A DNA stretch of 64,000 nt from Bacilli bacterium (GTDB lineage Bacteria > Bacillota_I > Bacilli_A > RFN20 > CAG-826). Positions 4,362 to 64,000 of this stretch are shown piece by piece (the stretch's first letter is position 1; every line of letters starts with the position of its first letter). The translations under genes were made by a program, and so were the position numbers. Below the pieces are notes generated by a model that ran no database searches, was not told the origin of the DNA, and worked only from the letters and a program-made list of their open reading frames with translations. The DNA is taken from positions 1 to 64,000 of the forward strand of contig JAZQOV010000006.1 in assembly GCA_045628045.1 (NCBI GenBank), given 5' to 3'.

Positions 4362-4432
4362 ATAAGCTTTTAAGGTATTAAATTTAATATTTACTTTAAT
4401 ACAGCTTTTTATATCTACGAGACAAAGTCTCG

Positions 4433-4465: not shown

Positions 4466-4504
4466 ATTTCACATCTCCTTTGTAATTCTAATTATACCAA
4501 GTAA

Positions 4505-5467: not shown

Positions 5468-5607
5468 ATTTTTTCCCAAATTTTCTATATAATAACATAG
5501 ACAATTCAATTTAATAAATTGTAAGTGTTACCAAGAAGAAAAAATGAGGACAACGTCCTCATTTAAATCTTTGAGATATCTAAATTTTGAAACCATTATA
5601 AGCTTTT

Positions 5608-10908: not shown

Positions 10909-12206
10909 AATTTTGCAAATATCTTAGCTCTTCTCACAAAGTCAGTAACTTGAATTTTAGATGTACATGAATAAGCACAAAGGCCACATTCAATACATTT
11001 AAGTGGATTTAAAGCTTTTATTCTTTCTTTATCTAACGCTTTCACAGCGTTCATTATTTGAACTGGTTGTAATCCAACAGGACATGATAAAACACAACTT
11101 CCGCATCTAACACAAGGTTCTTCCTTATAATTTGTTTTATTTAAAACAATAATAGATGTAACTGTTTTAGTAATAACAGCATCATCACTTGGAATAGATG
11201 CTCCCATCATTGGGCCACCTAAAATAAATACTTTCTCTTTTTCTAAGTCTTTATATCCACCGCATAAAGGAAGTAAATCTTGAATTAAAGTTCCAACAAG
11301 AACTCTAAAATTATGTGGATGCTTAATTCCATCCCCAGTAATAGTAATGTTTCTTTTAATAACTGGCATGTTATATTTAACTGCTTTATAAATACCAACA
11401 ACAGTTGAAACGTTAAAATTAATAATACCTCTATTAGAAGGAAGTTCTCCTGGATTTAATTGAACTCCAGTTGCCTCTTTAATCATTGCGACTTCCCATC
11501 CTTGTGGGTAATAGTTTTTAACTTCACAAATTTCAATTCCAGAATCAGGGAATTCATTTAAAATCTGATCATAAATTGACTTAATATCTGTATATTTTGA
11601 TTTAATACAAATTAAAGCTTTTTTAATTCCAAAAGCTTGCATTGCATATTTAATACCATTTATTATCCTATAAGGATATTCAAGCATTATTCTATGATCG
11701 GATGTGATGTAAGGTTCACATTCAATACCGTTTACAAGTAATAAATCTAATTTCTTGTCAGTTTGAAATTTAACATATGTAGGGAATGAGGAGCCACCAA
11801 GTCCGACTAATGCACAGTTTTTAATGATTTCGGTCATTTCTTTTTTACTTAATTTAGCAATTTCCTCAGGTGTTCTTTCCTTAACAGATGGATCTACTGT
11901 ATTTTTAAAATCATTTTCAATTTTAATAAAATCAGTTAATTTACCATTTCGATGGTAATGTTTTTCAAGTCCAACATAAATTCCTGAAACAGAAGAATGA
12001 ATTGGTTGATCAAAAAATCCGGCATGACGAATACCAATTACTTGATACATATTCACGTGATCACCAATATTTATAAAAATTTCAGCACTTGAACATCTTG
12101 CATTTGCGGTCGCTAAATAAATGAATTTTGGTTCCAAATACTTGATTGTTTGAAGCGATCCAACTAAACGCTTTGTGTCTTTAATGTGCCGTGTTTTTGA
12201 AATCAT
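10905..12206 (-). CDS. rnfC: Rnf complex subunit C
   Basis: Motifs GLGGSSFPT, NGIECEPY and GGPMMG; two CxxCxxCxxxC clusters. Confidence 0.93.
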   Translation of the reverse strand: MISKTRHIKDTKRLVGSLQTIKYLEPKFIYLATANARCSSAEIFINIGDHVNMYQVIGIRHAGFFDQPIHSSVSGIYVGLEKHYHRNGKLTDFIKIENDFKNTVDPSVKERTPEEIAKLSKKEMTEIIKNCALVGLGGSSFPTYVKFQTDKKLDLLLVNGIECEPYITSDHRIMLEYPYRIINGIKYAMQAFGIKKALICIKSKYTDIKSIYDQILNEFPDSGIEICEVKNYYPQGWEVAMIKEATGVQLNPGELPSNRGIINFNVSTVVGIYKAVKYNMPVIKRNITITGDGIKHPHNFRVLVGTLIQDLLPLCGGYKDLEKEKVFILGGPMMGASIPSDDAVITKTVTSIIVLNKTNYKEEPCVRCGSCVLSCPVGLQPVQIMNAVKALDKERIKALNPLKCIECGLCAYSCTSKIQVTDFVRRAKIFAKL

Positions 12207-12307
12207 TTCATATATTTTAGAATATTTTTATAAATAATTCAAAAAAATATATGAATAAAATAAAAAAGCCACCTTATGAAAGATGGCTAATTTGTTATTA
12301 TAAATAA

Positions 12308-14083
12308 CTATTTTGTAGGGAACTTTTCACGATTCTTCACATAAGTTGTGTGGAGTAATTTTTCGGAAAGTTCACTACAAGGTTCACCAAGGAATTCCTT
12401 GTAAATCTTTTTAATATCTGGGTTGTTATGAGATTGTCTGACTGGTTGTCTCTCATCTTCTTTATAAAGAACAGAGGCACGTTTTGCACGATATGTTTCG
12501 CGAATATCTTCATCCTCATTTGGAAGGAACATTGGTTTAACGTATGGTTGACCGCCACCGTTAATACATCCACCTGGGCATCCCATAATTTCAATGAATG
12601 CATAAGGTGATTTTCCTTCTTTAATTTGATCAAGAAGAACTTTAGCGTTTTTCATACCGCTTGCCATAGCAACTTTGAGTGTTGTTCCATTGATATCAAT
12701 GGAAGCTTCTCTAACACCTTCGAGTCCACGAACTGCTTCAAAAGCGATTTTTTCGTGTTCTTTTCCAGTGAGAATAAAGTATGCTGTACGAAGTGCTGCT
12801 TCCATAACGCCGCCAGTAACACCGAAGATAACACCGGCGCCAGAATATTGACCAAGTAAATCTTGATCCCAATCTTCATCTTCTGGGAGCATCTTCCAGT
12901 TAATACCAGCACGTTTGATCATCTTTGCAAGTTCTCTTGTTGTTAAAACTGCATCGACATCTCTAACGCCATCGACTTCCATCTCTTTACGAGATTTTTC
13001 GTACTTTTTAGCTGTACATGGCATGACTGAAACGACATAAATGTCTTTTGGATCAATACCATTTGCTCTAGCAAAATATGTTTTTGTGATAGCGCCTTGC
13101 ATTTGATGTGGGCTCTTACAAGTTGACATATTTGGAATTACTTCTGGATAGAAATATTCCATGTAGTTAATCCATCCTGGTGAACAAGATGTGATTTGTG
13201 GAAGAACTCCACCGTTTTTAATTCTATTAAGAAGTTCGGTTCCTTCTTCCATGATTGTAAGGTCAGCTGCGAAATTGACATCAAATACACGTTTGAAACC
13301 AAGACGTTTGCAAGCTGCAATCATCTTCTTGGTACCATTAGTACCAATCTTTTCACCGAATTCTTCTGCAATAGCGGCACGAACTGCTGGAGCAACTTGG
13401 CAAACAACGAATTTGCCTGCTTTAATTGCTGCATCAACATTTTCGATTTCACTATGTTCCATAAGTGCGCCGGTTGGGCAAACAAGAACACATTGTCCAC
13501 ACTGCATACATGGACTTGTTGCGAATGATCTATTTTGTGCTGGAGCAACGATTGTTTTAAATCCACGGTTTTCAAAACCTAAAATGCCAATTCCTTGTGT
13601 ATCTTTACAAGCTTCGATACATCTACCACAAAGAATACATTTTGCAGTGTTTCTAACAATACCTGGAGCAACTTCATCAACTGTTGCTGGGGTTTGTGTT
13701 CCAACAAATTTTTGATCTCTAGCGCCCACAAGTTTTGAGACTTCAAGAAGTTCACAATTACCATTTTTTGGACATTGCAAACAGTTCTTTTGGTGATTAG
13801 AAAGAATAAGTTCTACAGAACTTCTTCTTGCTTCCATTGCTTTTTGACTAGAAATAACAATTTCCATTCCTTCGTTAACTGGATAAACACACGAGGCAAC
13901 TAAGCCTCTTGCGCCGACAACTTCAACAAGACAAACTCTGCAGCTTGCTTGTGAACATTTGCCATGATTCCATGTACAAAGTGAAGGAATGTTATAACCG
14001 CATTTGCGGCATGCTTCTAAGACAGTAAGTGAACTGTCAACTTGATAGGATTTACCTTCAATTTTGATATTAACTAATGACAT
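12308..14083 (-). CDS. hydA: [FeFe]-hydrogenase catalytic subunit (group A3-like)
   Basis: H-cluster motifs TSCSPGW, MPCTAKKYE and EIMGCPGGCINGGGQP; N-terminal 2Fe2S, His-ligated 4Fe4S and 2x4Fe4S domains. Confidence 0.95.
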   Translation of the reverse strand: MSLVNIKIEGKSYQVDSSLTVLEACRKCGYNIPSLCTWNHGKCSQASCRVCLVEVVGARGLVASCVYPVNEGMEIVISSQKAMEARRSSVELILSNHQKNCLQCPKNGNCELLEVSKLVGARDQKFVGTQTPATVDEVAPGIVRNTAKCILCGRCIEACKDTQGIGILGFENRGFKTIVAPAQNRSFATSPCMQCGQCVLVCPTGALMEHSEIENVDAAIKAGKFVVCQVAPAVRAAIAEEFGEKIGTNGTKKMIAACKRLGFKRVFDVNFAADLTIMEEGTELLNRIKNGGVLPQITSCSPGWINYMEYFYPEVIPNMSTCKSPHQMQGAITKTYFARANGIDPKDIYVVSVMPCTAKKYEKSRKEMEVDGVRDVDAVLTTRELAKMIKRAGINWKMLPEDEDWDQDLLGQYSGAGVIFGVTGGVMEAALRTAYFILTGKEHEKIAFEAVRGLEGVREASIDINGTTLKVAMASGMKNAKVLLDQIKEGKSPYAFIEIMGCPGGCINGGGQPYVKPMFLPNEDEDIRETYRAKRASVLYKEDERQPVRQSHNNPDIKKIYKEFLGEPCSELSEKLLHTTYVKNREKFPTK

Positions 14084-29038: not shown

Positions 29039-29671
29039 TCACTTATTATTTTCTTTAATTAAAAAATCTTTTACTTCATCTAAATTTAAATTGGTTAAAA
29101 CTGGAATAAGTTTATTAATTTCATCGACTGGTTTATCCCACCATTTGAAGTTTTCTAATAAATCAATAAGTTCATCATCAAATCTTTTTCTTATAACTTT
29201 AGCAGGGTTTCCGCCAACAATTGTGTATGGTTCAACATCTTTAGTTACTACTGAGCACGCTCCAATAATTGCGCCATCGCCAATATGAACCCCTGGAAGA
29301 ATTGTAACTTTTTCACCGATCCAAACATCATTTCCAACAACAGTATCGCCTTTATAAGGGCAATCCTTATCTGCTGGACGCTTTGCGTCCCATCCTGGAA
29401 TAGTGAAAAATGGATAAGTAGAAACAGCATTTAATTGGTGATTGCATTCATTCATCATAAATTCAACTCCAAATGCGATTTGAACAAACTTTCCAATAAT
29501 AAGTTTATCTTTACTCCACGGATAAAAATGAGTCACGTGAGATTCAAAATCTTGATCTGCAAAATATGAGAAATCTCCAACAATAATATTTGGGTTTTTA
29601 ATTGTTGGTTTTATGTATGTTTGTTTGTCATATCCTGGTATAGGAAATACTAGGTTTGGATTTGGTTTCAT
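29039..29671 (-). CDS. Vat/CatB-family hexapeptide O-acetyltransferase (streptogramin A acetyltransferase-like)
   Basis: Motifs [29 protein letters not shown]...STYPF, GNDVWIG and WWD. Confidence 0.85.
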
Positions 29672-29791
29672 GTTTATATGATAACATTTTTATTACAAAT
29701 AAACACCCATTCAGATATCTTAATGTCAATCAGGCCAGCCTAATTAAGGAAACTGCTTATTTGCTTATGTTCAACATATTAAATTTTAAAC

Positions 29792-29875
29792 GGTTACATT
29801 ATGTAACCACTTCAATAAACCATTAAACGGTGACAATTTGTCACCAATTGAATCAGTTGGTTACTTTTTGTAACC
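29792..29875. repeat. Three GGTKAC-N5-GTMACC palindromes
   Basis: GGTTACATTATGTAACC (29792), GGTGACAATTTGTCACC (29829) and GGTTACTTTTTGTAACC (29859). Confidence 0.85.
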
Positions 29876-29899
29876 ATCTCAATATATAAAAAAACAGGC

Positions 29900-29951
29900 T
29901 TGTATCAAACCTGTTGTTTACATCTGGGTTTGTGAACCAATTTTGATACAA
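29900..29951. repeat. Putative serine-recombinase att site A
   Basis: TATCAA(29903)-N16-TG(29925)-N16-TTGATA(29943); perfect 10-bp terminal inverted repeat. Confidence 0.75.
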
Positions 29952-30062
29952 AAACTCAAATTGACTCAATTCACGCAATTAAATTTTAGCACATTTTTTA
30001 TACTTTGTGATTTTGCACCTTCCTTTTTAAAATAAAGTTTATTTGATAGTCACAAAAAATTG

Positions 30063-30674
30063 TTAGACAAGCTTTGCTTCAAAATCAACTCGACAATCTA
30101 AAACAAATGACAAAACAGCAAATATTAAAGCAATTGCAGTTATTATCAAAAATGAGATGAAAAGATATCTTTTAATTTTGAATCTAAATAACGACAAAAC
30201 CCCTAACACTATTGATAAAGAAACAAGAGGGATTGCAGCGTATATTAATCCATAACAATGCAGATTAACTATACTTCTAAATCCATATTCAACATGTGAA
30301 GTAGGGTAGCAGATTGTTTCGCCAGTTGGTTCATAATAAGAACAATTATTGCTATGCCAATTAACAACATTTCTCAAAGGCACATAATACATCGGAACGA
30401 AAAATAATATTAAAGTAGTTGCTAAAATTGAGATCAACACAATAGTGAAAACGTAATTGATTCTCTCCTTTTTTATATCTTTGTCATCTCTTAAATCTTT
30501 GATGTCTACTCCGAAGTAGAGTGCTAAAGCTTTAAGAGTATCTTCACTCGGTTTTCCGCCACCATTTTCGTATTTAGCAATTGCGCTTCTAGAAACGTGA
30601 ACAGCGTCCGCTAAGGCCTCTTGAGAAAGGCCCTCTTCAATTCTAAGTTTTTTAAGTTTATCTTTGAACTCCAT
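30063..30674 (-). CDS. XRE-family HTH regulator with TM helices (cassette cargo)
   Basis: LSQEALADAVHVSRSAIAKYENG followed by 3 TMs; start refined to MEFKDK. Confidence 0.85.
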   Translation of the reverse strand: MEFKDKLKKLRIEEGLSQEALADAVHVSRSAIAKYENGGGKPSEDTLKALALYFGVDIKDLRDDKDIKKERINYVFTIVLISILATTLILFFVPMYYVPLRNVVNWHSNNCSYYEPTGETICYPTSHVEYGFRSIVNLHCYGLIYAAIPLVSLSIVLGVLSLFRFKIKRYLFISFLIITAIALIFAVLSFVLDCRVDFEAKLV

Positions 30675-30975
30675 AATTCGACCAACTATATTGTAACTGA
30701 TTTTCATAAAAATAATTGTTACTTATTGTTACTTCGGTTAAAGTCATACAATATTGTCTTATAAAAATTCTATTCATCTTTTATATAATCCATTATTAAT
30801 AAACTGAAACAAGTTGATATGACTTGATACGCGATTAATTTGATTATTTTAGAATATATTTAAAACCTCATAATTTTTTGCCTTTATAAATAGCTCAAGC
30901 ATTCCGAAATGTTAAAAATATAATAAAAAACACCCATTTTTAGGGCATTTTCTATGAATTCCACCTTTGATTCAT

Positions 30976-31023
30976 TGTATCAAAGTATGTCTTCTAATCT
31001 GGTGCCTCCACGCAGAATCGAAC
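30976..31023. repeat. Hybrid att site T overlapping the tRNA-Thr 3' end
   Basis: TATCAA(30978)-N16-TG(31000, the CA of CCA)-N16-TCGAAC (tRNA T-loop). Confidence 0.7.
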
Positions 31024-31073
31024 TACGGATTGATCCTTACCATGGATCCGTTATACCATTTAACTATGGAGGC
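31000..31073 (-). tRNA. tRNA-Thr(GGT), CCA encoded
   Basis: Acceptor stem GCCTCCA/TGGAGGC, anticodon arm GATCC-ATGGTAA-GGATC, T-loop TTCGATT. Confidence 0.93.
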
Positions 31074-34731: not shown

Positions 34732-37700
34732 TTAATGTGCTTTTTTATTTTTTGCCTTTTTATCAAGCTCTTTAATTTCTTCGCGATATTTTGCCATTTC
34801 CTCAGAGTTTGCTAAGATCCAGTGACCCTTTGTAATTTCTTGAAGGGTTGGCTTTTCTTTAGAATAATCATGAACTTTATTTGGTTCATAAACAATTCTT
34901 TTACGTGTTTTCTCTGTTAATGGATCTGGTTTTGGAATAGCAGAAAGAAGTGCTTTTGCGTATGGATGGAGTGGATGCTTAAAGAGTTCTTCACTTGAAG
35001 CAAGTTCCACCATTTCTCCAAAATACATAACTGCAATTCTATCGCAGAAATATTTAACGACTGAGAGGTCGTGAGCAATAAACATAATTGTTAAGCCCAT
35101 TTCTTCTTTTAAGTCATTAAGAAGATTGATAATTTGAGCTCTAATTGAGACGTCAAGAGCAGAAATTGGTTCGTCACAAATTAAGAATGAAGGATTCATA
35201 ACAAGTGCACGAGCAATGCCAATACGTTGTCTTTGTCCACCTGAGAACTCATGTGGATAACGAGAAGCGAATTCTGGAATAAGTCCGACTTTTGTTAAGA
35301 CATCTGCAACCTTTTTGCTATTAGCAAACTTATTGCGTTGACCTTGAATCTTTAAACCTTCTTGAATAATGTCTTCAACAGTCATTCTTGGATCAAGAGA
35401 ATCAACAGGGTCTTGGAAAATCATTTGCATCTTGCTAAGAAGCTTCTTGTCAACATGTCTATTATCATAGTTAATTTGTTTAATAATAGCTTTTTGAGTT
35501 TTCTTGGTTTCACTAATATGATTTTCGATTTCTTTAATTTGTTTTTCGTAACTTGATCTAATTTGATTTTGTCTTTTTGATGATTCTGAAACATATTTCT
35601 TGTTATAAACACCTTTGGTGACAAGATAATCAATAAACTTAATTATAAAGTAAACTGCTGCACCAATAGCAAGATAAGCAACAGGAACGTACTCTGCAAG
35701 GAATGCAAAACAGAGTAATTCAAATAAATAACCGAGAATGCTAGATAAAACAATCTTTGCACGTTTTGCCTTAATAAATGGTGAATTATTTAAAACATCT
35801 TTGTTTCCGGTTCTTAAAAGCATAAGGATTCTAAGTGGAATCATGCAAATAACAACAAATACAATAATTCTTAAAGCTAAAATAATATCGATAATTTCTA
35901 ATGTGCCTAAGATAATTGCACCTAAACATGTTAAGATGCAAATAACTGTAAAAATAAATGCTGCGAGGAAATTTTGTCCTAAATATCTAAAATAATCTCT
36001 TAAATAACGGCCATGTTTCTTAGCATGGGTTTTCTCAATCTTATTTAATTTAGCTTCGCTAACCTTGATTTGTTTACGAAGTGATTTCCTATCTAAACGA
36101 AGAGAGCGTTTAAGTTCTCTATATTTTCTATTACGCATTTTCTTATTCTTAATTTCGTCATATTTAAGAACTTCGCCTTCGAAATTAATCTTTAAATTTG
36201 CGTAGTCTTCACGTTTATTAATAAGTGTGCTATGTGCAAAGAAAAGATTTTTATCTTCTTTTCTATTTTTTGCTACATAATGAGTTTCAAATTTCTTAAT
36301 TTTTCTAAGAGCTTTAACGTTGTTATGCCCTTTAATTTTGGCTTCTTTTCTAAGATATTTTGCTTCTTTTATTTGTTTATCATAGAAAGTAGCAATTCTG
36401 TTTTTGAAATTCTTAAATTCAACATCAGCAAATTTCTTGTTATATCTAATTTGAACGATAATAAAATCAAGAATTAAATAAGCAAAATAAATTCCTGCGG
36501 ATATTGAAATCCATTTTTGAGAAAGTGCTTTGCAAATAAATGCAATTCCGCAAATCTCAAAAGCAAGTGATAAAACCACGAATAAAGCAACTTTAATAGG
36601 TCTTACAATAATAAACCCAGAATTGCTTTCTCCTTCAGCTTTACCAACTCTAATGAGAAGTAGTACTCCAAAAGGAATAAGGCAAATAATTGCAAATACA
36701 ATATAAGTTAATAATGAATTAATTGATATTAAGTTAGATAAGCTAAGAAGCAATAAGCCAACACCAATTAGAATTGCACCAATAATTGCAATAATTGATT
36801 CAAAACTATATTTTTTAACGAATTTTGAATAATCTCTTAAGAATGAATGGCTCTTTCTTAGGCGAACCTTTTCAATTGATTTAATACGTTTTTCAATTTC
36901 AGCAATTGCTTCAGAAATCGAGATTTCGCTTAAAGCGAATGCATGATTAATTTCATCTCTTTTAACTGAACGTTGTTTTCTGTTCTTAATAAACTTTAAA
37001 GTACGTAATTCAGCTTGATAATTAATATCTAAATTTGCGTATTCTTCATAGCTACTTGCAAGAGACTTTTGAAGTTCTGATAAAACTTTAATGTCTTGTT
37101 TATTAGCTGCAACATAACGAAGTTGTTCTTTCTTTACAAATTTAAGAGCTTTAATTCGATTATGTTGTTTGATTCTAGCTTCTTTAATGGCGAATTTAAC
37201 ATCGCTAATTTGATTTTTATATGAAATTTTTGTTTCTTTAATTCGTTTTGCTAAAGGAGCGTCAAGATGTTTTCTCCTATAAGCTGCTCTAATAAAGAAG
37301 AAATCAATAATGTTATATAAAATATAAACACATGCTCCACAGAAGAAGTAAATTCTTGGTAAATAGCCAAGTATTACAGCAAATCCAATGAGTTCAATTA
37401 GAACTGACAGAATTGCAAAAATGGCTATTTTTATTGGTTTAATTTTGACAAATGAAACACCACTATCATCATTAGATTTATTAAGTCTAAAGATTTTAAC
37501 CATTTCAAATTGCATGATTAAAAGTAAACCAACAGTTACATATGTTAAGTAAGGATTTAGATCAACAAAATATGAAGCGCTAAGGAAAACTAATCCAAGT
37601 GCGATTAAGATTATTCCAATAATAGAAAGAGCTAATCTAAATGGATGTTTACTTCCTTGTTTAAAGTAATCCTTCAAGAAGTGATTATGTTTTCTTACAC

Positions 37701-38319
37701 GGGTCTTTTCAATTCTACGAATATTGGCTTTAGTTTCTTTAATAACTCGTTTATTTTGTTTTTTAGTTACATTGTAACTATGTTTAATCTCAGATTTCTT
37801 GTTAGCACGAAGTTCTAAGTCTTCAATTTCTCTAAGATTAAGACATGCTTCTTCATAATTTGCTTTCAAATTAGCACGTTCTTCAATCTTTTCACCTAAT
37901 GTTCTTTGGAGTTTACGAAGTGGTTCAACATCCTTTTTATTAATGGTTACATAAGTAAGTTCAGAGTTCATTTCTGATCTAAGAGCTTTAATCTTATTTT
38001 TACCTTTAATTCTTGTCCATTTAATTTCTTTTTCATTCCATCTTTTGCCTGCGCTTATACGATGTCCTTCGAAATAAACAGAACCTGATGTAATGTTGTA
38101 AAGTCTAATTAAAGAACGACCTGTTGTGGTTTTACCACAACCAGATTCACCAACAACACCAAAACATTCACCTTTTTTAATATCAAAAGATACATCGTGA
38201 ACTGCTTTTGTGGTAAGTGAATTAGAGCCATGTCCAAACTTAAAATATTGTTTCAAGTGACGGACAGAAACTTCTACATTATTGTCAACAAGTGACTTAT
38301 CAAAAGTAACCTTACGCAT
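34732..38319 (-). CDS. oppF: Oligopeptide ABC ATPase OppF with a ~840-aa triple-repeat membrane insertion
   Basis: Walker A GESGCGKTT, then the insert, then QMIFQDP, FSGGQRQR, ICDEP, H-loop and oligo_HPY. Confidence 0.88.
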   Translation of the reverse strand: MRKVTFDKSLVDNNVEVSVRHLKQYFKFGHGSNSLTTKAVHDVSFDIKKGECFGVVGESGCGKTTTGRSLIRLYNITSGSVYFEGHRISAGKRWNEKEIKWTRIKGKNKIKALRSEMNSELTYVTINKKDVEPLRKLQRTLGEKIEERANLKANYEEACLNLREIEDLELRANKKSEIKHSYNVTKKQNKRVIKETKANIRRIEKTRVRKHNHFLKDYFKQGSKHPFRLALSIIGIILIALGLVFLSASYFVDLNPYLTYVTVGLLLIMQFEMVKIFRLNKSNDDSGVSFVKIKPIKIAIFAILSVLIELIGFAVILGYLPRIYFFCGACVYILYNIIDFFFIRAAYRRKHLDAPLAKRIKETKISYKNQISDVKFAIKEARIKQHNRIKALKFVKKEQLRYVAANKQDIKVLSELQKSLASSYEEYANLDINYQAELRTLKFIKNRKQRSVKRDEINHAFALSEISISEAIAEIEKRIKSIEKVRLRKSHSFLRDYSKFVKKYSFESIIAIIGAILIGVGLLLLSLSNLISINSLLTYIVFAIICLIPFGVLLLIRVGKAEGESNSGFIIVRPIKVALFVVLSLAFEICGIAFICKALSQKWISISAGIYFAYLILDFIIVQIRYNKKFADVEFKNFKNRIATFYDKQIKEAKYLRKEAKIKGHNNVKALRKIKKFETHYVAKNRKEDKNLFFAHSTLINKREDYANLKINFEGEVLKYDEIKNKKMRNRKYRELKRSLRLDRKSLRKQIKVSEAKLNKIEKTHAKKHGRYLRDYFRYLGQNFLAAFIFTVICILTCLGAIILGTLEIIDIILALRIIVFVVICMIPLRILMLLRTGNKDVLNNSPFIKAKRAKIVLSSILGYLFELLCFAFLAEYVPVAYLAIGAAVYFIIKFIDYLVTKGVYNKKYVSESSKRQNQIRSSYEKQIKEIENHISETKKTQKAIIKQINYDNRHVDKKLLSKMQMIFQDPVDSLDPRMTVEDIIQEGLKIQGQRNKFANSKKVADVLTKVGLIPEFASRYPHEFSGGQRQRIGIARALVMNPSFLICDEPISALDVSIRAQIINLLNDLKEEMGLTIMFIAHDLSVVKYFCDRIAVMYFGEMVELASSEELFKHPLHPYAKALLSAIPKPDPLTEKTRKRIVYEPNKVHDYSKEKPTLQEITKGHWILANSEEMAKYREEIKELDKKAKNKKAH

Positions 38320-55881: not shown

Positions 55882-55905
55882 AAAAAGCAACCAATATTGG
55901 TTGCT
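55882..55905 (-). terminator. Intrinsic terminator at the left boundary of the cassette array
   Basis: Minus strand AGCAACCAATATTGGTTGCTTTTT. Confidence 0.7.
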
Positions 55906-55918
55906 AATTTTATATTGA

Positions 55919-55945
55919 TGGCAAAGGGCAGCAGAATTAATACAA
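55919..55945. repeat. Terminal half att site F
   Basis: TG(55919)-N16-TTAATACAA(55937); no TATCAA on the left side. Confidence 0.55.
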
Positions 55946-56141
55946 TTTTCCACCCCTAGTTATGATAATAAGACCAAATAATGTTATCTAATCTTGAAAC
56001 AGTGAGCCCAGATTGATATAGCAGAAATTAGTAATCTATAATATGAGTAAGGAAATATTTGAAAAGATATTGATAAATTAGAATTTGCGCCTACAATGAT
56101 AAAAAACATATAAATCTTAACGACAAGGAGGAACAACAGTT

Positions 56142-56531
56142 ATGGATAACAAAGAACTGGTAACTCGCTTTTTTGTGGAAGGATATATCAATCACAATTA
56201 CGACTTTATCATGGAATGTATGGCGGAGAACTACATAGACCACAGTCCTGCCGGAGCAAGAAGTAATGCTGATGCCGTGGGCATCTTGAAAATTGTGGAG
56301 GGACAATTCTTTGACCTGAAAATTGAGGTGCTTGACGTATTTGGTGAAGATGATATGGTTGCAACCAGAATTCTCTATCAGGGTATTCATGCCGGAACTT
56401 GTATGGGAATACCAGCTACCGGAAAGCATATTAGCTTTGAGGCATTGGAGAACTTTAGGGTTGTGGACGGCAAGATTGTTGAATCATGGGGCTACTGGCC
56501 AGATAAAGAAATTGAAGAAAAACTTCGATAA
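56142..56531 (+). CDS. SnoaL-like ester cyclase
   Basis: GIHAGTCMGIPATGKHISF...DGKIVESW; AGGAGG RBS. Confidence 0.88.
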   Translation: MDNKELVTRFFVEGYINHNYDFIMECMAENYIDHSPAGARSNADAVGILKIVEGQFFDLKIEVLDVFGEDDMVATRILYQGIHAGTCMGIPATGKHISFEALENFRVVDGKIVESWGYWPDKEIEEKLR

Positions 56532-56703
56532 ATTTCAGTTTGTAGAAATAAATAATTCAAACGATAACTGAAGTAGAGTTGCTTCAGTTTTTATTTTAAA
56601 ATAAAAGACAGATTTTAAATCTGTCACTACCTTAATTGGTTATTTGGTGCATCAGGCCCCAAATCTCTAAATTGAACCACCAAAAACGGCTTCAAATGCT
56701 TTA

Positions 56704-57228
56704 TTAATGAGTATCTACTTTAACTCTCCACACGTTTTTTACGATTTTCTTTTCTACACCTTGATATAAACCGATCCCTGTAAAGACATTTTCAAAGCCG
56801 CATTTTCTCATAACGGCAAGGGATGCGGTATTCTCCGCCAAACAGATACCGTATATTTCAGATATTCCTGCCCGTTTTGCAATCACCGGCAGAAACGCAT
56901 TTACCGATTCGGTTGCATATCCGTTTCCCGTATATTTCTTTGCAATGTGATAGCCAATTTCCCACTTGCTATTTTCAATCTGACACAACTGAACATAGCC
57001 GATATTGTCCTTTGTCTCTTTCACAATGATCGGATACACAAGCGGCCCGTCAAAAGAACCATACTGCGAAATAAGTAGCCTCAAAACTTCTTCTGCTTCT
57101 TCAACAGTTTCCCATACTTCATCCGGGACAAATCGCTTATTATCCTCATCCACTGAGTTTTCCTGAACGACCTGTGCCATATCCAAAGTGAATTCGGTGA
57201 TAATCAATCTTTCGGTTTCAATCAGCAT
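56704..57228 (-). CDS. GNAT acetyltransferase (RimJ/RimL family)
   Basis: Motifs IETERLII, EIGY, GNGYATE and ENTAS...KCGF. Confidence 0.88.
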   Translation of the reverse strand: MLIETERLIITEFTLDMAQVVQENSVDEDNKRFVPDEVWETVEEAEEVLRLLISQYGSFDGPLVYPIIVKETKDNIGYVQLCQIENSKWEIGYHIAKKYTGNGYATESVNAFLPVIAKRAGISEIYGICLAENTASLAVMRKCGFENVFTGIGLYQGVEKKIVKNVWRVKVDTH

Positions 57229-57302
57229 TTTTACTTTCCTTTTTGCTTTATGAACATACTAAACTCAACAAAAGTTCCTGTCAACAGCAGAATAGAGCCT
57301 AC

Positions 57303-57363
57303 CATCTAACGCTTTTAATGCTTTTTAGTTTTTTGATAATTTTTCAACTCTAATAATTTCCAT
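57303..57363 (-). pseudogene. Truncated copy of the 5' end of the ABC ATPase gene at 62489-63205
   Basis: Reads MEIIRVEKLSKN*KALKALD versus MEIIRVEKLSKNYKALKALD in the intact gene. Confidence 0.85.
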
Positions 57364-57496
57364 GCTCTAGCCTTCACGACACGAGCATACAAAAAACAAA
57401 TTTATTTGTCATAGAAATTAACTAAGTGGTCTTTTTTGCTAACTATTCGGTAGAAAAAAGCACTGATTTTTGCATCAATGCTGTTGTTTACTAATG
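57303..57496. repeat. ~190-bp direct repeat of 63145-63338
   Basis: Near-identical by eye with scattered substitutions; similarity ends at the central TG of sites B and E. Confidence 0.9.
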
Positions 57497-57520
57497 CCTC
57501 CGTTTACCCATTTTGATACA
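57471..57520. repeat. Putative att site B
   Basis: CATCAA(57473)-N16-TG(57495)-N16-TTGATA(57513). Confidence 0.75.
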
Positions 57521-57605
57521 CTGCATACCCTAGCCTAGTTTTTGCATACCCTAGGTGTTTTTTGCATACCCCTATTTCTGAACGATAAATAAAAATTTAT
57601 CAGTA

Positions 57606-58100
57606 TTACAACCTCTTTATCTCATTGGCAATCGCAGCCACAGCTTTTCCTTTAGTATCAATTTTAATAGTGTCCAATGCTTGATACATAGGTATTCTCG
57701 CTATGCTTCTCTCAATTACATCTTCAGAACGAATACCTTTTTCTACATCCGCGGACAATCTTTCACGCAGAGTATTTTCATCGGCTGTCAGAGAGATGCA
57801 TTTCACCTCACAGTTCTGTATATCCAACTTCTTAAGTATGGAATCGATAATTCTCTGCTCGTGCATCACCCAACAAAAAATAATATTCTCGTATGCATAA
57901 CATTTCAGAAAATTATTGAGTAAGTAACAAATATTATTCGTCACCATTGCTTTTGTTTCATCGGTTACTTGGAATGGATCGGCATCCCAACACCAATCTC
58001 CATCAAGAAATACACTATTCGGTAAATCCTGTTTGAGCTGTTGGCACACAGTTGTTTTTCCAACTCCCATAGTGCCACCAATCATATATAAAGTTTTCAT
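57606..58100 (-). CDS. AAA/P-loop nucleotide kinase-like protein
   Basis: Motifs GGTMGVGKTT and LDGDWCW. Confidence 0.85.
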   Translation of the reverse strand: MKTLYMIGGTMGVGKTTVCQQLKQDLPNSVFLDGDWCWDADPFQVTDETKAMVTNNICYLLNNFLKCYAYENIIFCWVMHEQRIIDSILKKLDIQNCEVKCISLTADENTLRERLSADVEKGIRSEDVIERSIARIPMYQALDTIKIDTKGKAVAAIANEIKRL

Positions 58101-58155
58101 ATCTGTTCCTCACAAATCCCGATTTATCGATATCCCGACAAATGCGAATTTCTCT

Positions 58156-58623
58156 TTATCTATGCTTTTCTAAGCGTAGAAGACCTTCTTCATCCGGTAC
58201 ACTAATTCCGTTTTTATATGTGTATCCCATTTTTATATAAAAGGGAGTTGCAGTGATCGAGGCAGGTATTTCAATTCTCTTCGCGCGAAGAAAATATTCG
58301 TCTTTTTCCAAAGTATCTATGATCTTTCTTCCGATTCCTTGCCCGTGATACTCTGGTAAAACAAAGATAGTGAATAAACTACTTTCGTCAACTTTACCCC
58401 AGTATGGTCCTATTGCACCGCAGCCCACAATTTTATCCTCATCGCATACTACATAAAAATGAGTCCATTTTGCGCGTTCCAAGATGTCTTTCGGCTGTAA
58501 TTTTTGAACATCATTTTCGATATATTCCCTCGAATAATCTTTGGTGTTGACTTCTCTGAGCGTCCTAACAATCAAAGCTGATACATTTACTGCATCTTCA
58601 GGCTCGATTCTTCTGATAATCAT
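58156..58623 (-). CDS. GNAT acetyltransferase
   Basis: Motifs FVLPEYHGQGIG and FYIKMGY. Confidence 0.88.
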   Translation of the reverse strand: MIIRRIEPEDAVNVSALIVRTLREVNTKDYSREYIENDVQKLQPKDILERAKWTHFYVVCDEDKIVGCGAIGPYWGKVDESSLFTIFVLPEYHGQGIGRKIIDTLEKDEYFLRAKRIEIPASITATPFYIKMGYTYKNGISVPDEEGLLRLEKHR

Positions 58624-58898
58624 TGCATCGCATCCTCATGAATCTCGATTTCTCTCCGTTTATTATACCGGCGATGCAGGGACATTTCTATTGATAAAAA
58701 CAGCTGGGACACCCCAACTTCCACAACTTACTCCTCGTGAGATGTGTCTTTCCAAAGGATACTTACGTATTTCTAAAGGCTACCTAGCTGAAGCAAGGAT
58801 TCTATCAAAAGAGCTGACTAATTATTCCTTATTTATTAGATTTATAAGAAAAAATGCCCATTTCTGAGCATTTTTGCGGTTTTTCGCATATTCCACTT

Positions 58899-58946
58899 TG
58901 TATCAAAGCATGTATACGATTATGTCTTGCTGCAACGAAGTTAATA
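58899..58946. repeat. Putative att site C
   Basis: TATCAA(58901)-N16-TG(58923)-N16-TTAATA(58941). Confidence 0.75.
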
Positions 58947-59129
58947 GTTTTTAACCAAGTGCAACGAAGTTAATGGATCGAACACAACGAAGTTAATATG
59001 TGTTTTCAATCAAATGGGCCACTTCAACAATGGTTCAAGTAGCAAGTATGAGACTATTGATGGATACGAAGTAGATAAATATAACTACCAAAATCACACA
59101 GTTAATAAGATAAAAACATTTAAAAAGAT

Positions 59130-59807
59130 TTAATCATTAACAAAGAATATCGTGTTCTTATCAAATGCCCCATAGGCAAATCCGAAATTAAGGAAGCCGG
59201 GCATTTTTTCATATGCTTTAAATGAAGTTCTATTTATAAATTCATCTACACCAATATTTTCAATATATCCATATGGGTTATAGATGGTGACGTTATCGTT
59301 AGAAATATCAAGGCTGGTTACTACTGAATAATGAAGCGTCCATTCATTTTCATATTTGGCGGCCCATTCCACGATAACAGGGTTCTGATCTTTTAAAGAT
59401 TTGAATATTTCTTTTAAGAGAATATCGTGTTTTAGATATTCGTGTTTATCAAATGATTTTCCTTCAATAAAATTATTGATTTCTTCTAAGAAACCTTTCG
59501 ATGTTGAGGTAGTAATTCTGCCTTTATTCTTTAGACTTAGTTCGTCTTCAGTGATCTTTTGTCCATAGTAGGAGGATACCATTTCAATTGAGGCGTAGCC
59601 ACAAGAGATATGTTGTTCAACAAGCTCTATTCCGCTTACTTCTACCTTTTGAGAATAGATGCTGCTATCTTTTAAATAGGAGTAGTCTGATTTTAAAGAT
59701 GATGTTCTAATTCCTAGAATTGAAAAAGGAATCGCAAGCGAAAGAGAAATTGCTCCCAAAAAAACACTAGAAATAATAATTGCTAATGTTTTCTTTTTAA
59801 GCTTCAT
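59130..59807 (-). CDS. Membrane-anchored C39-like cysteine peptidase
   Basis: N-terminal TM; motifs QHISCG, LHYSVV and YNPYG. Confidence 0.7.
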   Translation of the reverse strand: MKLKKKTLAIIISSVFLGAISLSLAIPFSILGIRTSSLKSDYSYLKDSSIYSQKVEVSGIELVEQHISCGYASIEMVSSYYGQKITEDELSLKNKGRITTSTSKGFLEEINNFIEGKSFDKHEYLKHDILLKEIFKSLKDQNPVIVEWAAKYENEWTLHYSVVTSLDISNDNVTIYNPYGYIENIGVDEFINRTSFKAYEKMPGFLNFGFAYGAFDKNTIFFVND

Positions 59808-60003
59808 ATTTATACTCCAAAATATCGGCAGGTTGACAATTCAATTCTTTGCACAAAGCATTTAAAGTGGAAAATCGAATTGCTGAAATTTTACCTGTTT
59901 TTATGTTGGACAAATTCGCGTCCGTCAAGCCGATTTTTACTGCAAGATCTTTCAGTTTTACACCGCGCTCTTTCATTACTTTATCTAATTTTAATACTAT
60001 CAT
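59797..60003 (-). CDS. YozG-like XRE/Cro regulator
   Basis: NLSNIKTGKISAIRFSTLNALC..L.CQPADIL. Confidence 0.88.
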   Translation of the reverse strand: MIVLKLDKVMKERGVKLKDLAVKIGLTDANLSNIKTGKISAIRFSTLNALCKELNCQPADILEYKYEA

Positions 60004-60491
60004 AATGTTTCGTCGTCATTCTTTTGTAATTCTTTGCCGTATTTGAAAAACAAACCAAAAATAAACATAACAATACCCGATATAACTCCACCAAGAGAAA
60101 TTGGGAAGATCAATTCGGTTGTAGGGTAGATAATACGTAAAACTGTTGAGCCGACAAGCGCAGGAACAACCGAAATAAGTATTACGAATATAGCAATCTT
60201 TTTCAAATAGTGACTTACTTTTTCTCCAAACGGGGCTTTTTCTTGTTCTATGCTTTTGAAAAGGCTTTCTAGATTCCAAAGCAACCCGATACATATAAAC
60301 GCATATAAAGCAAGCGTACCAAATATGCTTGCAGTTTCCGCAACGGAAAGTTCTTTAATTGCATTTGTACATGACAGCGCAATCGTCAAAGCGATAAAAA
60401 CCAAACACGCTGCACAACTTACAAAATAAAGAACTTTCGTTACTATGTAACACACTTTTGCAGTTTTGATAATTTTGTTTTTTGTTTCCAT
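60000..60491 (-). CDS. DUF2975-like membrane protein
   Basis: 4 TMs; C-terminal FKYGKELQKNDDETL; adjacent to a YozG-like HTH gene. Confidence 0.75.
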   Translation of the reverse strand: METKNKIIKTAKVCYIVTKVLYFVSCAACLVFIALTIALSCTNAIKELSVAETASIFGTLALYAFICIGLLWNLESLFKSIEQEKAPFGEKVSHYLKKIAIFVILISVVPALVGSTVLRIIYPTTELIFPISLGGVISGIVMFIFGLFFKYGKELQKNDDETL

Positions 60492-60535
60492 AATGAAATT
60501 TCCTTTGTTTTAATTACCAATATATTAGCGCAAAA

Positions 60536-60571
60536 TTATCGTTTATCAATATTTTTTATCGTTTATCAATA
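60536..60571 (-). promoter_or_regulatory. Tandem operator-like repeat upstream of the DUF2975-HTH-C39 operon
   Basis: TTATCGTTTATCAATA occurs twice with a 20-nt period. Confidence 0.55.
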
Positions 60572-60707
60572 ATTTTTTGAAAGCAAATAATGCAAAACTT
60601 TAAGAAATTATCATTCTTATGGCATAACGCACTATGTTTTATAAAAGAAACAATAAACTAAATATGCCATAAATAATGAAAAAAGCCTTGATTTTAGTGT
60701 TTTCAAC

Positions 60708-60755
60708 TGTATCAAAGCTTTAGTCTACATTTGTCTTTGTGCAAATAAGTTGATA
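60708..60755. repeat. Putative att site D
   Basis: TATCAA(60710)-N16-TG(60732)-N16-TTGATA(60750). Confidence 0.75.
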
Positions 60756-60794
60756 TATAAATTTGAGGTTCTTGACGCTCATTATTATACATCT

Positions 60795-61226
60795 TTATTC
60801 TTTATTCATTTCATTAAGCTTATTGTTCATTTTCTTTACTGTTTTCTTTGAAACAAGATAGATAATTATCCAAATAATGATAAACGCTCCAATAAATGCT
60901 GAAGAATAAATGAGAATCACAATTGGTTTAAGCGGAATCCAATTGTTAATCAAATATCCAGCTGTATATACAGTGTAAAGTGATACACCTTGAAAAAACG
61001 CAGACTTAAATGGCGACCATTTTTCAATTTGAGGGAATACACTACTACCAGCATGAACAAACGCAATCACGTATGTTGTAATAATCGCAGAACAAATCTG
61101 ATATACAGATAATTCCACTTTTACTCCTGACCACTCTAGAATTAAATAAATAATTGCAAGAATAATTGGACCAAAGCCCGCAAAGATTAATCCGCGGAGC
61201 AAATAACTTTTTACATATTTGTTCAT
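60795..61226 (-). CDS. DUF3021-like membrane protein (LytTR-system inhibitor type)
   Basis: 4 TMs; WS...NNWIP motifs; directly downstream of lytTR. Confidence 0.75.
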   Translation of the reverse strand: MNKYVKSYLLRGLIFAGFGPIILAIIYLILEWSGVKVELSVYQICSAIITTYVIAFVHAGSSVFPQIEKWSPFKSAFFQGVSLYTVYTAGYLINNWIPLKPIVILIYSSAFIGAFIIIWIIIYLVSKKTVKKMNNKLNEMNKE

Positions 61227-61227
61227 G

Positions 61228-61662
61228 TTATAAGCCAATCCTTTCTTTCACGTGTTTTAATTCTCTACGAGAAATATAATCTTTGTATCCATTTTTGAAA
61301 ATAACCAAAGTGGCGCCACCAATAGAGGTTTTGAATTCTTTCATTTGTTTAATGTTTGCTAAACAAGATTGATTTAGCTTAACGAAATATTCATTAAAAG
61401 GCATATCCTCAAGTTGATATAGTCTTTCTTTAAGTTGATATTTCTTTTCACCGATTAAAGCGAAGATTTTTCCGCCTTCCACAATGAAACAAGTAACTTC
61501 AATTGGATCAATCAAGATAGTAGTATCTTCATAGGTGCCAGTTAAAGAAACACCTGTTGAAGAAACTAGTTTTTCAATCTCTTCCACTAAAGAAGTTTTT
61601 TCCTTCGCGTAGATGACTACTTTTTCTTCTTGTTTATCGTCGATAAATGTATAACATTTCAT
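61228..61662 (-). CDS. LytTR-domain transcriptional regulator (no receiver domain)
   Basis: Motifs LYQLE, FVKLNQSCLAN and KNG..DYISRR. Confidence 0.88.
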   Translation of the reverse strand: MKCYTFIDDKQEEKVVIYAKEKTSLVEEIEKLVSSTGVSLTGTYEDTTILIDPIEVTCFIVEGGKIFALIGEKKYQLKERLYQLEDMPFNEYFVKLNQSCLANIKQMKEFKTSIGGATLVIFKNGYKDYISRRELKHVKERIGL

Positions 61663-61676
61663 GTTTTAATTATATA

Positions 61677-62489
61677 TTAGCTGATATCTTTTTTCATTTT
61701 ATTTGTGAAAACAAACAATGACAAACTAACAAGCACTATCATATAGGCAAGCATTAAGACTAAATATAAGGTTCCACGATCACTGAAATTATAAATAACA
61801 GGATTAAATGTGGTTGCTTCATCAATTGAAGTCTGAGTTGCGCCTGTAATACATCTACCTAAATAAGTAGATTCATAGAAAGGCAAGAAACCACAAGCTT
61901 TTTCAAAATTTCCCATTGTGTCTAATGGAATCCACGCACCACCCAAGATGCCAGATGCAGAAATGAATATTGATGATACTGCAGGTGAGCTTTTGTCATT
62001 CAAAATTGTTCCAAATATCATGCCTAATGAGATGCAAATAATCATCATTGGAAACATTTCAATAAACAACAAGCATGCATTGCCAAAACCAACAAAACCT
62101 CTGCCACTTATTAATCCAGATATATACCCAGAAACAATACAAATAACGGTTTGACATAATCCAACAATAATAAAAGGAATTAAATATCCCAATATGAATT
62201 GATATGCTTTAAGAGGCGAAGAAAATAGTCTCTTCAAGAAAGCGCTCTCTCTATCTTTTGATATGAGCAAAGAAGACATCAACATTAATAAGGAATAGCT
62301 AAACATAACAACCCCTGGAATTAAGCTCTTTTCATAGAAGATAGGGCTTTGTCCATCAGGTATATAATGTAAAATTACATTAAACATCAAAATCATAAAG
62401 ATAGGAAACCCAACACAAAAGATATATAAAAGAGGATCTCTAATCATTTCAGTTAGGTTTCTTTTTGTAAACAATATTGCCTTTTTCAT
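61677..62489 (-). CDS. ABC-2 type exporter permease
   Basis: RDP motif, 6 TMs, and RLFSSPL. Confidence 0.85.
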   Translation of the reverse strand: MKKAILFTKRNLTEMIRDPLLYIFCVGFPIFMILMFNVILHYIPDGQSPIFYEKSLIPGVVMFSYSLLMLMSSLLISKDRESAFLKRLFSSPLKAYQFILGYLIPFIIVGLCQTVICIVSGYISGLISGRGFVGFGNACLLFIEMFPMMIICISLGMIFGTILNDKSSPAVSSIFISASGILGGAWIPLDTMGNFEKACGFLPFYESTYLGRCITGATQTSIDEATTFNPVIYNFSDRGTLYLVLMLAYMIVLVSLSLFVFTNKMKKDIS

Positions 62490-63205
62490 TATTTGATATC
62501 TCCTCCTACAATCTTCACAAACGCTTCTTCAAATGAGTTTTCTTTTGTGTGTTCTTTTATTTCCTCTACAGTGCCTATATCTAATAGATGACCACTACTT
62601 AAAATCGCTACTCTATCACATAAAGCTTCAATTTCTTCTAAATAGTGAGAAGTTAATACAATCGTCGTCTTTCCTTTCAAGGATTTAATAACTTCCCATA
62701 ATTCTCTTCTGATGAGAACATCGAGTCCTAAAGTAGGCTCATCAAGGAAAAGAATCTTTGGTTTAGAAATAAGCGCTACTGCGATTGACAATCTTCTTTG
62801 CCAACCGCCTGATAAAGTCTTTACTCTTTTGTTCAGAATTTCTTTTAAAGAAAAAGAATCCACTATCTTATTAAAATATTCTTCATCGTGACTCCCATAT
62901 AGGCTCTCAAAGAAGAACAAGTTCTCTTTCACAGTCAAATTCATTGCCACAGATATTTCTTGCGGAGAAATGTCTATAATCTTCTTTATTTCATCTATTT
63001 CGCTTAATGGATGACCATCAACCACTGCATCTCCACCACTTTTCTTAGCTAATCCAGATAAAATTCTAATCAATGTTGTTTTTCCGGCACCATTAACGCC
63101 TAGTAATCCAAATAACTCACCTTCTTTTATAGAAAGAGATACTTCATCTAACGCTTTTAATGCTTTATAGTTCTTTGATAATTTTTCAACTCTAATAATT
63201 TCCAT
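62489..63205 (-). CDS. ABC exporter ATP-binding protein
   Basis: Motifs GVNGAGKTT, LSGGWQRR, LDEPTLG and TSH. Confidence 0.92.
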   Translation of the reverse strand: MEIIRVEKLSKNYKALKALDEVSLSIKEGELFGLLGVNGAGKTTLIRILSGLAKKSGGDAVVDGHPLSEIDEIKKIIDISPQEISVAMNLTVKENLFFFESLYGSHDEEYFNKIVDSFSLKEILNKRVKTLSGGWQRRLSIAVALISKPKILFLDEPTLGLDVLIRRELWEVIKSLKGKTTIVLTSHYLEEIEALCDRVAILSSGHLLDIGTVEEIKEHTKENSFEEAFVKIVGGDIK

Positions 63206-63264
63206 GCTCTAGCCTCCACGACACGAGCATACAAAAAAACAAATTCATTTGTCGCAGAAATTAA

Positions 63265-63294
63265 CTAAGTGGCCTTTTTTGCTCACTATTCGGT
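63265..63294 (-). promoter_or_regulatory. LytTR-type 9-12-9 direct repeat operator (second copy at 57422-57451)
   Basis: Minus strand ACCGAATAG-N12-GCCACTTAG upstream of the ABC-lytTR-DUF3021 operon. Confidence 0.65.
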
Positions 63295-63312
63295 AGAAAA
63301 AAGCACTGATTT

Positions 63313-63360
63313 TGTATCAATGCTATTGTTTCCTTATGTGTTTGTGCAACGATGTTGATA
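63313..63360. repeat. Putative att site E
   Basis: TATCAA(63315)-N16-TG(63337)-N16-TTGATA(63355). Confidence 0.75.
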
Positions 63361-63362
63361 TA

Positions 63363-63998
63363 TCAGTGAAACGAAGTTGATATATGTTTTTTACTCTTTT
63401 TATAATTTACAATACCAAAGATCAATAAAACAAAAGAAGCCATAATGCCTGCAGCAGCAACTATTAAAGCAACATTCCCGTTGCTGTAGTTATTCCAATC
63501 AACAAAATTAACTTGATAACAATTTGTGACTCCACCCAATAAATAATTTAAAAATCCATTTAATCCAAATGCAAATAGTGTCGAGACAAATACAATAGCA
63601 CTACCTTTAAAACATTTGTTTATCGGAATTAAACTTAATCCACCACTAATCAAAATTGGAAGAACAACATAAGTCGTTATTTCAATTCCTAAAACAAAAT
63701 CATAGGATGCATATGAATTTATAACTGCAAGTAATGAAATGATCAATAAATATATAGTTCCAAAATAAATCAAAACAAAGAACTTTTTGAGTTTTTTAAA
63801 TACCTCATATCGGTAGAAAATAAATGGAAAGAAAAGCATAAAATATCCAAGAATTACCGCTAATATTGCAAGAAAACACCAATAATTTGAAACATAGATT
63901 GAGCATGTCAAAAACAAGATAAACATACTTAATAAAGTTAAACTAACAAACCAAAGTAATTTGTGTTTTTTAAATATTTTTGTAACTAATGGAGCATA
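63363..63998 (-). CDS. Multi-TM membrane protein, 5' end outside the window
   Basis: The frame stays open from the ATG at 63926 to the window edge. Confidence 0.7.
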   Translation of the reverse strand, partial: YAPLVTKIFKKHKLLWFVSLTLLSMFILFLTCSIYVSNYWCFLAILAVILGYFMLFFPFIFYRYEVFKKLKKFFVLIYFGTIYLLIISLLAVINSYASYDFVLGIEITTYVVLPILISGGLSLIPINKCFKGSAIVFVSTLFAFGLNGFLNYLLGGVTNCYQVNFVDWNNYSNGNVALIVAAAGIMASFVLLIFGIVNYKKSKKHISTSFH

Positions 63999-64000
63999 GA

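Follow-up and report, generated by a model that had tools for sequence, protein, structure and literature searches.

Recombinase-free cassettes stacked behind a tRNA-Arg gene of a Bacilli bacterium bear the ends of prophages with paired serine recombinases

We analysed a 64,000-nt stretch of DNA from a Bacilli bacterium, an uncultured organism of the gut (positions 1 to 64,000 of contig JAZQOV010000006.1, or C6:1-64000; hereafter the window), which belongs to a genome of 1.07 Mb and 96% completeness (G000). Attachment-like sites of the form TATCAA-N16-TG-N16-TTGATA near its right end are the junctions of a 10.6-kb stack of six cassettes that lack a recombinase gene, anchored at a tRNA-Arg(tct) gene just beyond the window. 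The crossover is the 2-bp TG, at which ends re-assort, and the ends are those of prophages that encode a pair of large serine recombinases (LSRs). We consider it probable that this head-to-tail stack with prophage end sequences was built by serial insertion at the CCA end of tRNA-Arg by the LSR pair of a related prophage.

The island spans C6:55919-66559, with units of 1576, 1428, 1809, 2605, 2252 and 971 bp. The tRNA-Arg(tct) gene (C6:66560-66636, minus strand, outside the window) anchors the array, and its CCA end provides the TG at C6:66560, the central TG being the complement of the last CA in CCA. Sites B, C, D and E, and another at 29925, lie where a first-pass annotation of the window had placed them, with the hexamer and spacer geometry given above, the variant hexamers CATCAA (left of B) and TTAATA (right of C), and exact inter-site distances for the first four units. 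What had been called a half-site at 55919 is the distal, attR-like junction (55897..55942), in which a constant chromosomal arm with a terminator hairpin at 55886-55905 meets an N16-TTAATA element arm at TG 55919-55920; in strain contigs the chromosomal arm is joined at this TG to 2 other right arms. No duplicated tRNA fragment was found at this far end, where only TGGC is common with the tRNA-Arg end. None of the arsB-like loci in 19 relatives adjoins tRNA-Arg.

From the distal junction towards the tRNA, cassette 1 (55919..57494) carries SnoaL (56142-56531, plus strand) and GNAT (56704-57228, minus strand) genes and leads to junction B (57473..57518, TG 57495), whose right arm contains 3 short internal repeats. 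Cassette 2 (57495..58922, minus strand) encodes an AAA_18 kinase-like protein (57606-58100) and a GNAT protein (58156-58623); both of these cassettes are missing in run X1, one of the runs compared below. Junction C (58901..59018, TG 58923) bears three GCAACGAAGTTAAT-type repeats in its right arm and is followed by cassette 3 (58923..60731, minus strand), with genes for a DUF2975-like protein, HTH_26 and a peptidase C39-like protein. Beyond junction D (60710..60755, TG 60732), cassette 4 (60732..63336, minus strand) encodes an ABC ATPase, an ABC-2 permease, LytTR and DUF3021. Junction E (63315..63382, TG 63337), with a terminator-like hairpin at 63302-63324 on the minus strand and a second repeat copy in its right arm, opens cassette 5 (63337..C6:65588, minus strand, of which the window holds the part to 64000), with an HTH-membrane protein and Fic. 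Site F (TG C6:65589, left spacer of 17 nt) and cassette 6 with TMEM164, between C6:65589 and tRNA-Arg, lie outside the window.

The cargo amounts to 14 accessory-gene proteins, 1-4 genes per cassette, and 13 of the 14 are directed away from the tRNA (one overlapping open reading frame was dropped). The cassettes had been described as recombinase-free, and indeed Pfam finds no recombinase among the 14 proteins, and LSR and tyrosine recombinase searches of the island were negative. Pfam likewise agrees with the cargo labels, except that DUF2975 stays below the cut-off and the 'kinase' is AAA_18. The tRNA-side ends of cassettes 1 and 4 (57303-57496 and 63145-63338) share 195 bp at 92.8%. This stretch covers the beginning of the ABC ATPase gene, truncated in cassette 1. 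Thus, cargo appears to have been replaced behind a retained end.

The motif was searched in the window with up to 2 mismatches, giving 10 matches versus 2.37 ± 1.55 in shuffles. None of 100 shuffled windows reached 10, although 3 of the 10 are palindromic double counts and 2 look like chance. The hexamer pair alone is not enriched genome-wide, as with up to 1 mismatch allowed, spacing 34 has 30 matches and other spacings have 9-30; among the 30 at spacing 34, a TG centre occurs in 5 on the plus strand, all of them array sites, and in 2 on the minus strand. The case therefore relies on the central TG, on clustering, and on comparisons of genomes and strains. A position weight matrix scan, circular for its 5 training sites, gained one weak site on contig C3. 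Inspected by eye, the sites show inversion in the distal hexamers and in few bases further in, but nowhere else.

The two sides of a unit differ. Each far end is TG-N16-TTRATA, often with 2-3 internal repeats, and short internal repeats occur in 21 of 58 far ends versus 9 of 58 on the other side. On the tRNA side, each unit opens with a hairpin, and the hexamer lies within it or next to it. Terminator-like hairpins, of which a scan found 13 (5.1 ± 2.2 in shuffles), stand left of 4 of 7 junctions and head at least 3 cassettes, and promoter-like matches are near background (64 versus 54 ± 6.7).

Across genomes, a given end is joined at TG to a tRNA CCA in some cases and to another element end in others. 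Among 102 junctions, 10 of 76 left-arm clusters pair with at least two right arms, and both kinds of partner, tRNA and element, occur in 7 clusters. After TG, the base varies (T25 G24 C4 A2, n = 55). Since the ends re-assort while sharing only TG, they have the 2-bp core that characterizes LSR attachment sites. Whole cassettes are also found in different places. A 4.5-kb feoB cassette with an additional IS3-type gene adjoins tRNA-Trp in one genome and tRNA-Pro in a second (97.7% over 4.9 kb), and a 742-bp cassette of G000 has different neighbours in G065, with homology that begins and stops at the TG arms.

Strain differences were examined by comparing contigs of 4 out of 24 listed runs (3 studies) with C6:53000-69000. 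As had been predicted, strain breakpoints fall at the TG, and the differences are whole cassettes. In X1, the chromosomal arm is joined to site C (2918 to 5923, numbered within the compared region), skipping 3004 bp, which is cassettes 1 and 2 (1576 + 1428). In X1, X2 and X19, the left arm of site F is joined to the tRNA (12588/9 to 13560/1, same numbering), skipping 971 bp, which is cassette 6. At the 55919 TG, X2 shows a different arm (N16-TTTATA); in X1, the right arm belonging to 55919 stands behind the end that is seen at the tRNA-His of G000.

The exact site is present in 172 of 401 family genomes, with 267 matches versus 16 for reversed-pattern controls (by eye). About 33 of the 150 listed family matches belong to one conserved coding sequence (by eye) and were excluded from a set of 40 regions, which are non-coding matches picked by hand with long contigs favoured. 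The expected clustering behind tRNAs is borne out in this set, as a tRNA stands in the predicted orientation in 26 of the 40 regions and in the opposite one in 3, while random places in G000 give 13.7%. The hexamer is found at N16 in 17 of 26 edge tRNAs, which cover 14 tRNA species, versus 1 of 25 inner tRNAs. Across the phylum, 121 of 401 genomes contain an end fused to a tRNA (226 matches versus 24 controls by eye, an imperfect control with the tRNA half fixed). Such fusions are common in some families (31/41, 21/31 and 9/11) and rare in others (1/56 and 3/48). The genomes are related by kinship, so that these genome counts are not independent.

The cassettes had been ascribed to a single LSR acting in trans. 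A cognate LSR does exist in prophages of relatives with the same ends, but as a pair. In genome G248, a 48-kb prophage (C1 ~74.8-123.1 kb) starts at tRNA-Arg(tct). Its tRNA-side end is the left arm of site C (179 bp, 93.9%), and its far end, 130 bp past the LSR pair, is the right arm of site B (85 bp, 98.8%). The pair are the only two PF07508 genes of G248, and neither of its 2 tyrosine recombinases is inside the prophage. As the prophage ends match the arms of cassette 2, cassette 2 is 1.4 kb of other cargo between the prophage's two ends, and this cargo is not in the G248 prophage.

In G003, a whole 47-kb prophage with terminase and capsid genes extends from a tRNA CCA to a site-C-type far end, with its LSR pair on the tRNA side; it also encodes a 317-aa tyrosine recombinase. 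In G081, 6.9 kb of its end is found again (92.8%) at tRNA-Pro, as a cassette that lacks a recombinase. A cassette shared with the G003 prophage end (L040:4472-11723) holds DUF488, dual-OB, DUF2201 and AAA genes and is possibly a defence module. The far ends of the G003 and G248 prophages contain no tRNA fragment. Elements with these ends and a cognate LSR were found in G248, G003, G282, G160 and G334; in G160, the prophage is followed in the stack by a 2.4-kb cassette bearing the same far end as the prophage, which is compatible with mobilisation in cis.

More widely, PF07508 is present in 69 of 200 family genomes. The LSRs have Resolvase and Recombinase domains, with or without a zinc ribbon, and both partners of a pair measure 430-570 aa. 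Among 46 LSR loci, the distance from the gene end to a tRNA CCA is 171-804 bp in 9, and a full site lies no more than 4 kb away in 8. The full site at L276 is probably due to chance, L085, the locus of the G248 pair (10077-12970), has a 2-mismatch site, and the remaining loci have neither tRNA nor site. Nine single LSRs (574-608 aa) have no tRNA end within 1.5 kb. Within the G248 clade of a quick LSR tree, another two prophages begin at serine tRNA genes, tRNA-Ser(gga) and tRNA-Ser(cga), where N16 is occupied by the hexamer. When 7 additional LSR elements were traced to their other end, a tRNA bearing the hexamer was reached in 2 cases and one lacking it in 1; 3 elements run off the contig and 1 has no terminase. 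Among 80 viral loci with the exact site, 4 have an LSR pair; the other 76 have no LSR within 6 kb and were taken as chance matches. Another 80 viral loci, with relatives of the LSRs (45-54%), show neither tRNA nor site.

The structure of tRNA genes suggests how many of them could be targeted. All 44 tRNA genes of G000 encode CCA, and in 41 of them the T-loop complement TYGAAC is exactly 16 nt from TG (on the complementary strand, counted from the 3′ end). By sequence match, N16 is the best register for the tRNA arm (a mean of 3.34 of 6 versus 2.2 at N11). Because the spacing of TYGAAC is that of TTGATA in element arms, the targeting of many tRNAs would be explained.

We conceive that each LSR protomer would read a half-site whose distal hexamer, TTGATA in the element or TYGAAC in the tRNA arm, is separated from the crossover by 16 nt, and nearly any CCA-encoding tRNA gene would then be usable. 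Integration would keep the tRNA intact and add a new terminator. If the tRNA/element junction is reused, the newest unit would adjoin the tRNA and the inner junctions would resemble attP. Cassettes would form from a prophage or element by loss of the middle part or exchange of cargo, with both ends kept, and they would be mobilised when a helper prophage supplies the enzymes, either alone or excised together with the helper. According to PMC3783163, the distal motif of LI integrase is at half-site positions 16-24 and is shifted by 5 bp in attB, a shift that underlies directionality. The tRNA arm does not show this attB-type 5-bp shift. Read unshifted, all arms would be geometrically alike, and reuse of attL and excision of sub-arrays may be allowed. 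We infer LSR activity, circular forms and action in trans; it is also possible that different LSR pairs, each specific to one tRNA, act on shared ends. More tentatively, at somewhat less than even chances, paired LSRs may use the T-loop-to-CCA geometry as a universal attB, with every junction again a substrate, such that temperate phages run an integron-like cassette pool in trans among tRNA loci across phylum-wide uncultured bacteria.

Several observations weigh against insertion of the stack by an LSR pair. The first-pass annotation had suggested looking for an LSR elsewhere in the same genome, but G000 has no intact one. A PF07508 search found no gene, and what is left is a remnant of an LSR C terminus (134 aa) plus a weak fragment where a contig begins. 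Canonical integrases do not recombine attP with attL (PMC3783163). The hexamer of left ends is often missing or shifted (at 9 of 26 edge tRNAs, at site F and at the tRNA-Arg end), and short internal repeats at far ends are no known LSR feature. Eight loci of the G248 clade lack a site in 4-11 kb of downstream DNA, the LSR pair faces the opposite way in L257 and L324, and two different tRNAs were never seen with one and the same LSR pair. In the strain comparison, 3 of the 15 joints listed (28 in all) fall on TGs, most others being in conserved flanking genes. The joints are supported by 28-57 letters at a likeness of 85, a level at which short sides may come from other organisms. The sole hint of a circle is one contig of X3 (depth 4.7) that joins an F-type left arm to the E right arm; a tandem would explain this contig as well as a circle. 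An empty tRNA-Arg site is absent among the joints shown; an empty-site search of a metagenome collection gave 6 matches, all in unrelated context.

Some of these points would fit cassettes that are passive scars with real LSR arms, left by serial prophages that decayed in place and changing only by deletion or by riding along with an adjacent intact prophage. We regard this as unlikely. It agrees with the lack of an intact LSR in G000 and of a clear circle, with the G081 cassette being the end region of the G003 prophage, and with the feoB cassette having the same next end in both genomes, block-like. It conflicts, on the other hand, with the same cassette at different tRNAs, with the 742-bp cassette having other neighbours in G065 and homology bounded by TG arms, with strain differences that are whole cassettes cut at TG, and with a cassette 2 cargo that is missing from the G248 prophage.

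Even less probable is a tyrosine recombinase as the agent, with the triple repeats as arm-type sites, because the common core is only TG, no tRNA fragment is duplicated at junctions, and the G248 and G282 prophage stretches have an LSR pair at the end without any PF00589 gene. Still, the repeats at the far ends are arm-like, tRNA 3′ ends are classic tyrosine recombinase targets (PMC4383910), and such enzymes exist both in the G003 prophage (that of 317 aa) and in G000, whose three are all distant from the array, near which PF00589 has no match. It is hardly credible that the junction modules are transcription signals, namely a terminator and a repeat-bearing small RNA, instead of recombination sites. 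The terminator-like hairpins left of 4 of 7 junctions would suit such signals, but between-genome homology starts at TG, strain breakpoints are at TG, and a complete prophage has the repeat arm at its end. A small RNA could be made from an arm even if the arms recombine. For the repeats on contig C3 of G000, the data likewise contradict a small-RNA reading. Incidentally, Tn7/DDE-type ends were considered for the TG and the repeats and were rejected, as the left arms do not end in CA and there is no target duplication.

Serial insertion by a phage LSR pair is thus the reading we prefer, and its closest known counterparts are the accretion of cis-mobilisable elements (CIMEs), the composite islands that the staphylococcal cassette chromosome (SCC) forms, and the Dehalococcoides ssrA islands. 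Integrons are defined by IntI, attC hairpins and promoterless cassettes read from Pc. The first-pass annotation's term 'integron-like' is apt as an analogy, in that both are exchangeable arrays in which the newest unit likely lies next to the anchor and cargo genes are co-oriented (13 of 14 here). It does not extend to the make-up of the array, in which no IntI was found, cassettes hold up to four genes, at least three have terminator-like heads, and a phage serine pair is the likely enzyme. The C6:206 kb enzyme, the only one scanned against NCBIfam of the three tyrosine recombinases in G000 (the others have 299 and 302 aa), scores 103.9 versus 265 for the IntI model TIGR02249.

CIMEs, as PMC5704250 describes them, lack genes for integration or transfer, retain both att ends and accumulate as tandem arrays at a single site. 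The cassettes here are alike in all three respects, and as far as testable they fall under the CIME definition. They are unlike CIMEs in their paired-LSR prophage donors, 2-bp core and many target tRNAs; in that source, gene-end targets belong to tyrosine integrases, and most integrative and mobilisable elements with serine integrases insert inside genes. The Dehalococcoides ssrA islands carry DsiA/DsiB, with 15 of 31 islands lacking the module (PMC3146451). They too have two serine recombinase genes and tandem islands behind a structural RNA gene. However, they use one target (ssrA), a T-loop crossover, a 20-bp direct repeat and a DsiA of ~200 aa, whereas here the crossover is at CCA without duplication, the partners measure 430-570 aa, and the targets comprise at least 14 tRNA species.

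The CcrA/CcrB of SCC/SCCmec resemble the present system in an LSR pair of similar sizes, insertion at a gene 3′ end and stacked cassettes. The LSRs here score 60-144 bits against Ccr cut-offs of 700-900, the target is a tRNA rather than rlmH (the SCCmec target; PMC13739063), and the carriers are tailed prophages. With canonical serine integrases (LI/A118) the sites share a length of ~46 bp, a central dinucleotide and a distal motif, and the enzymes share the Resolvase and Recombinase domains with or without a zinc ribbon, but the LI attB motif is shifted 5 bp inwards (PMC3783163) and the tRNA arm fits best unshifted.

According to PMC4383910, which presents Islander, serine integrases are not known to target tRNAs; that search requires a duplicated tRNA fragment, and the elements here leave none. 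A survey of multi-targeting LSRs groups targets by disrupted protein genes and uses 'tRNA' 0 times in its main text (PMC10083194). The consulted passages of a 2026 integrase survey do not address CCA. In a literature search of listings and the openings of abstracts, we found no description of LSR insertion at tRNA CCA ends; subscription journals, the att tables of PMC10083194 and the TIGER database may hold such sites.

Other arrays are present in G000. What had been noted as a tRNA hybrid at 31000 is a tRNA-Thr(ggt)/element fusion (30978..31073, minus strand, attL-like) that anchors a second array in the same manner as tRNA-Arg does. The CCA of the tRNA (31000-31073) is joined to a TATCAA-N16 arm, and its T-loop hexamer TCGAAC sits 16 nt from TG. 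The 1075-bp cassette (29925..30999, minus strand) holds an HTH-membrane gene (30063-30707) and ends at junction A (29903..29948, TG 29925). Beyond junction A, a gene for a Vat-like hexapeptide acetyltransferase (29039..29671, minus strand; 255.8 bits versus a cut-off of 300) is likely cargo, and the distal end of its unit was not found. Three spaced palindromes of the GGTTAC-N5-GTAACC type upstream of this gene (29787-29876) are possibly repressor or resolvase sites.

A third array, at tRNA-Met (L043, C3:93.3-100.5 kb), has three site-C-type right arms and carries PBECR4, a Na/H exchanger and a Tsp45I-type restriction-modification system. Two 19-bp T-arm copies of tRNA-Met, at 96282 and 100229, suggest that a second, longer-core type of integration is mixed in. 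A fourth array is probable at tRNA-His (L045, C3:136240-138477), with a degenerate junction and ORF6N, methyltransferase and CmpB as cargo. Elsewhere in G000, a XerC-like recombinase at C6:206-207.6 kb (L044:8971-10627) adjoins the 134-aa LSR remnant as a decayed element. The short contigs C4 and C5 hold phage-like early genes, so prophage DNA may be incompletely assembled. A 1195-aa OppF-like ATPase with inserted membrane repeats is encoded at 34732-38319 of the window.

It is likely, then, that a phage LSR pair inserts cassettes at the CCA tail of numerous different tRNAs; targets of this type were not known for these enzymes. Paired LSRs are in this way linked with integration at many tRNA CCA ends, for which there is a geometric reason that can be tested, and enzyme-site pairs suitable for direct assay are named. 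The system is a natural case in which to study relaxed LSR directionality and why LSRs occur in pairs. The universal-attB reading, if true, would offer a non-disruptive integration tool that needs no landing pad. For the bacteria themselves, insertion of this kind would explain how small-genome gut bacteria without an integrase of their own gain accessory genes for acetyltransferases, transporters, restriction and defence.

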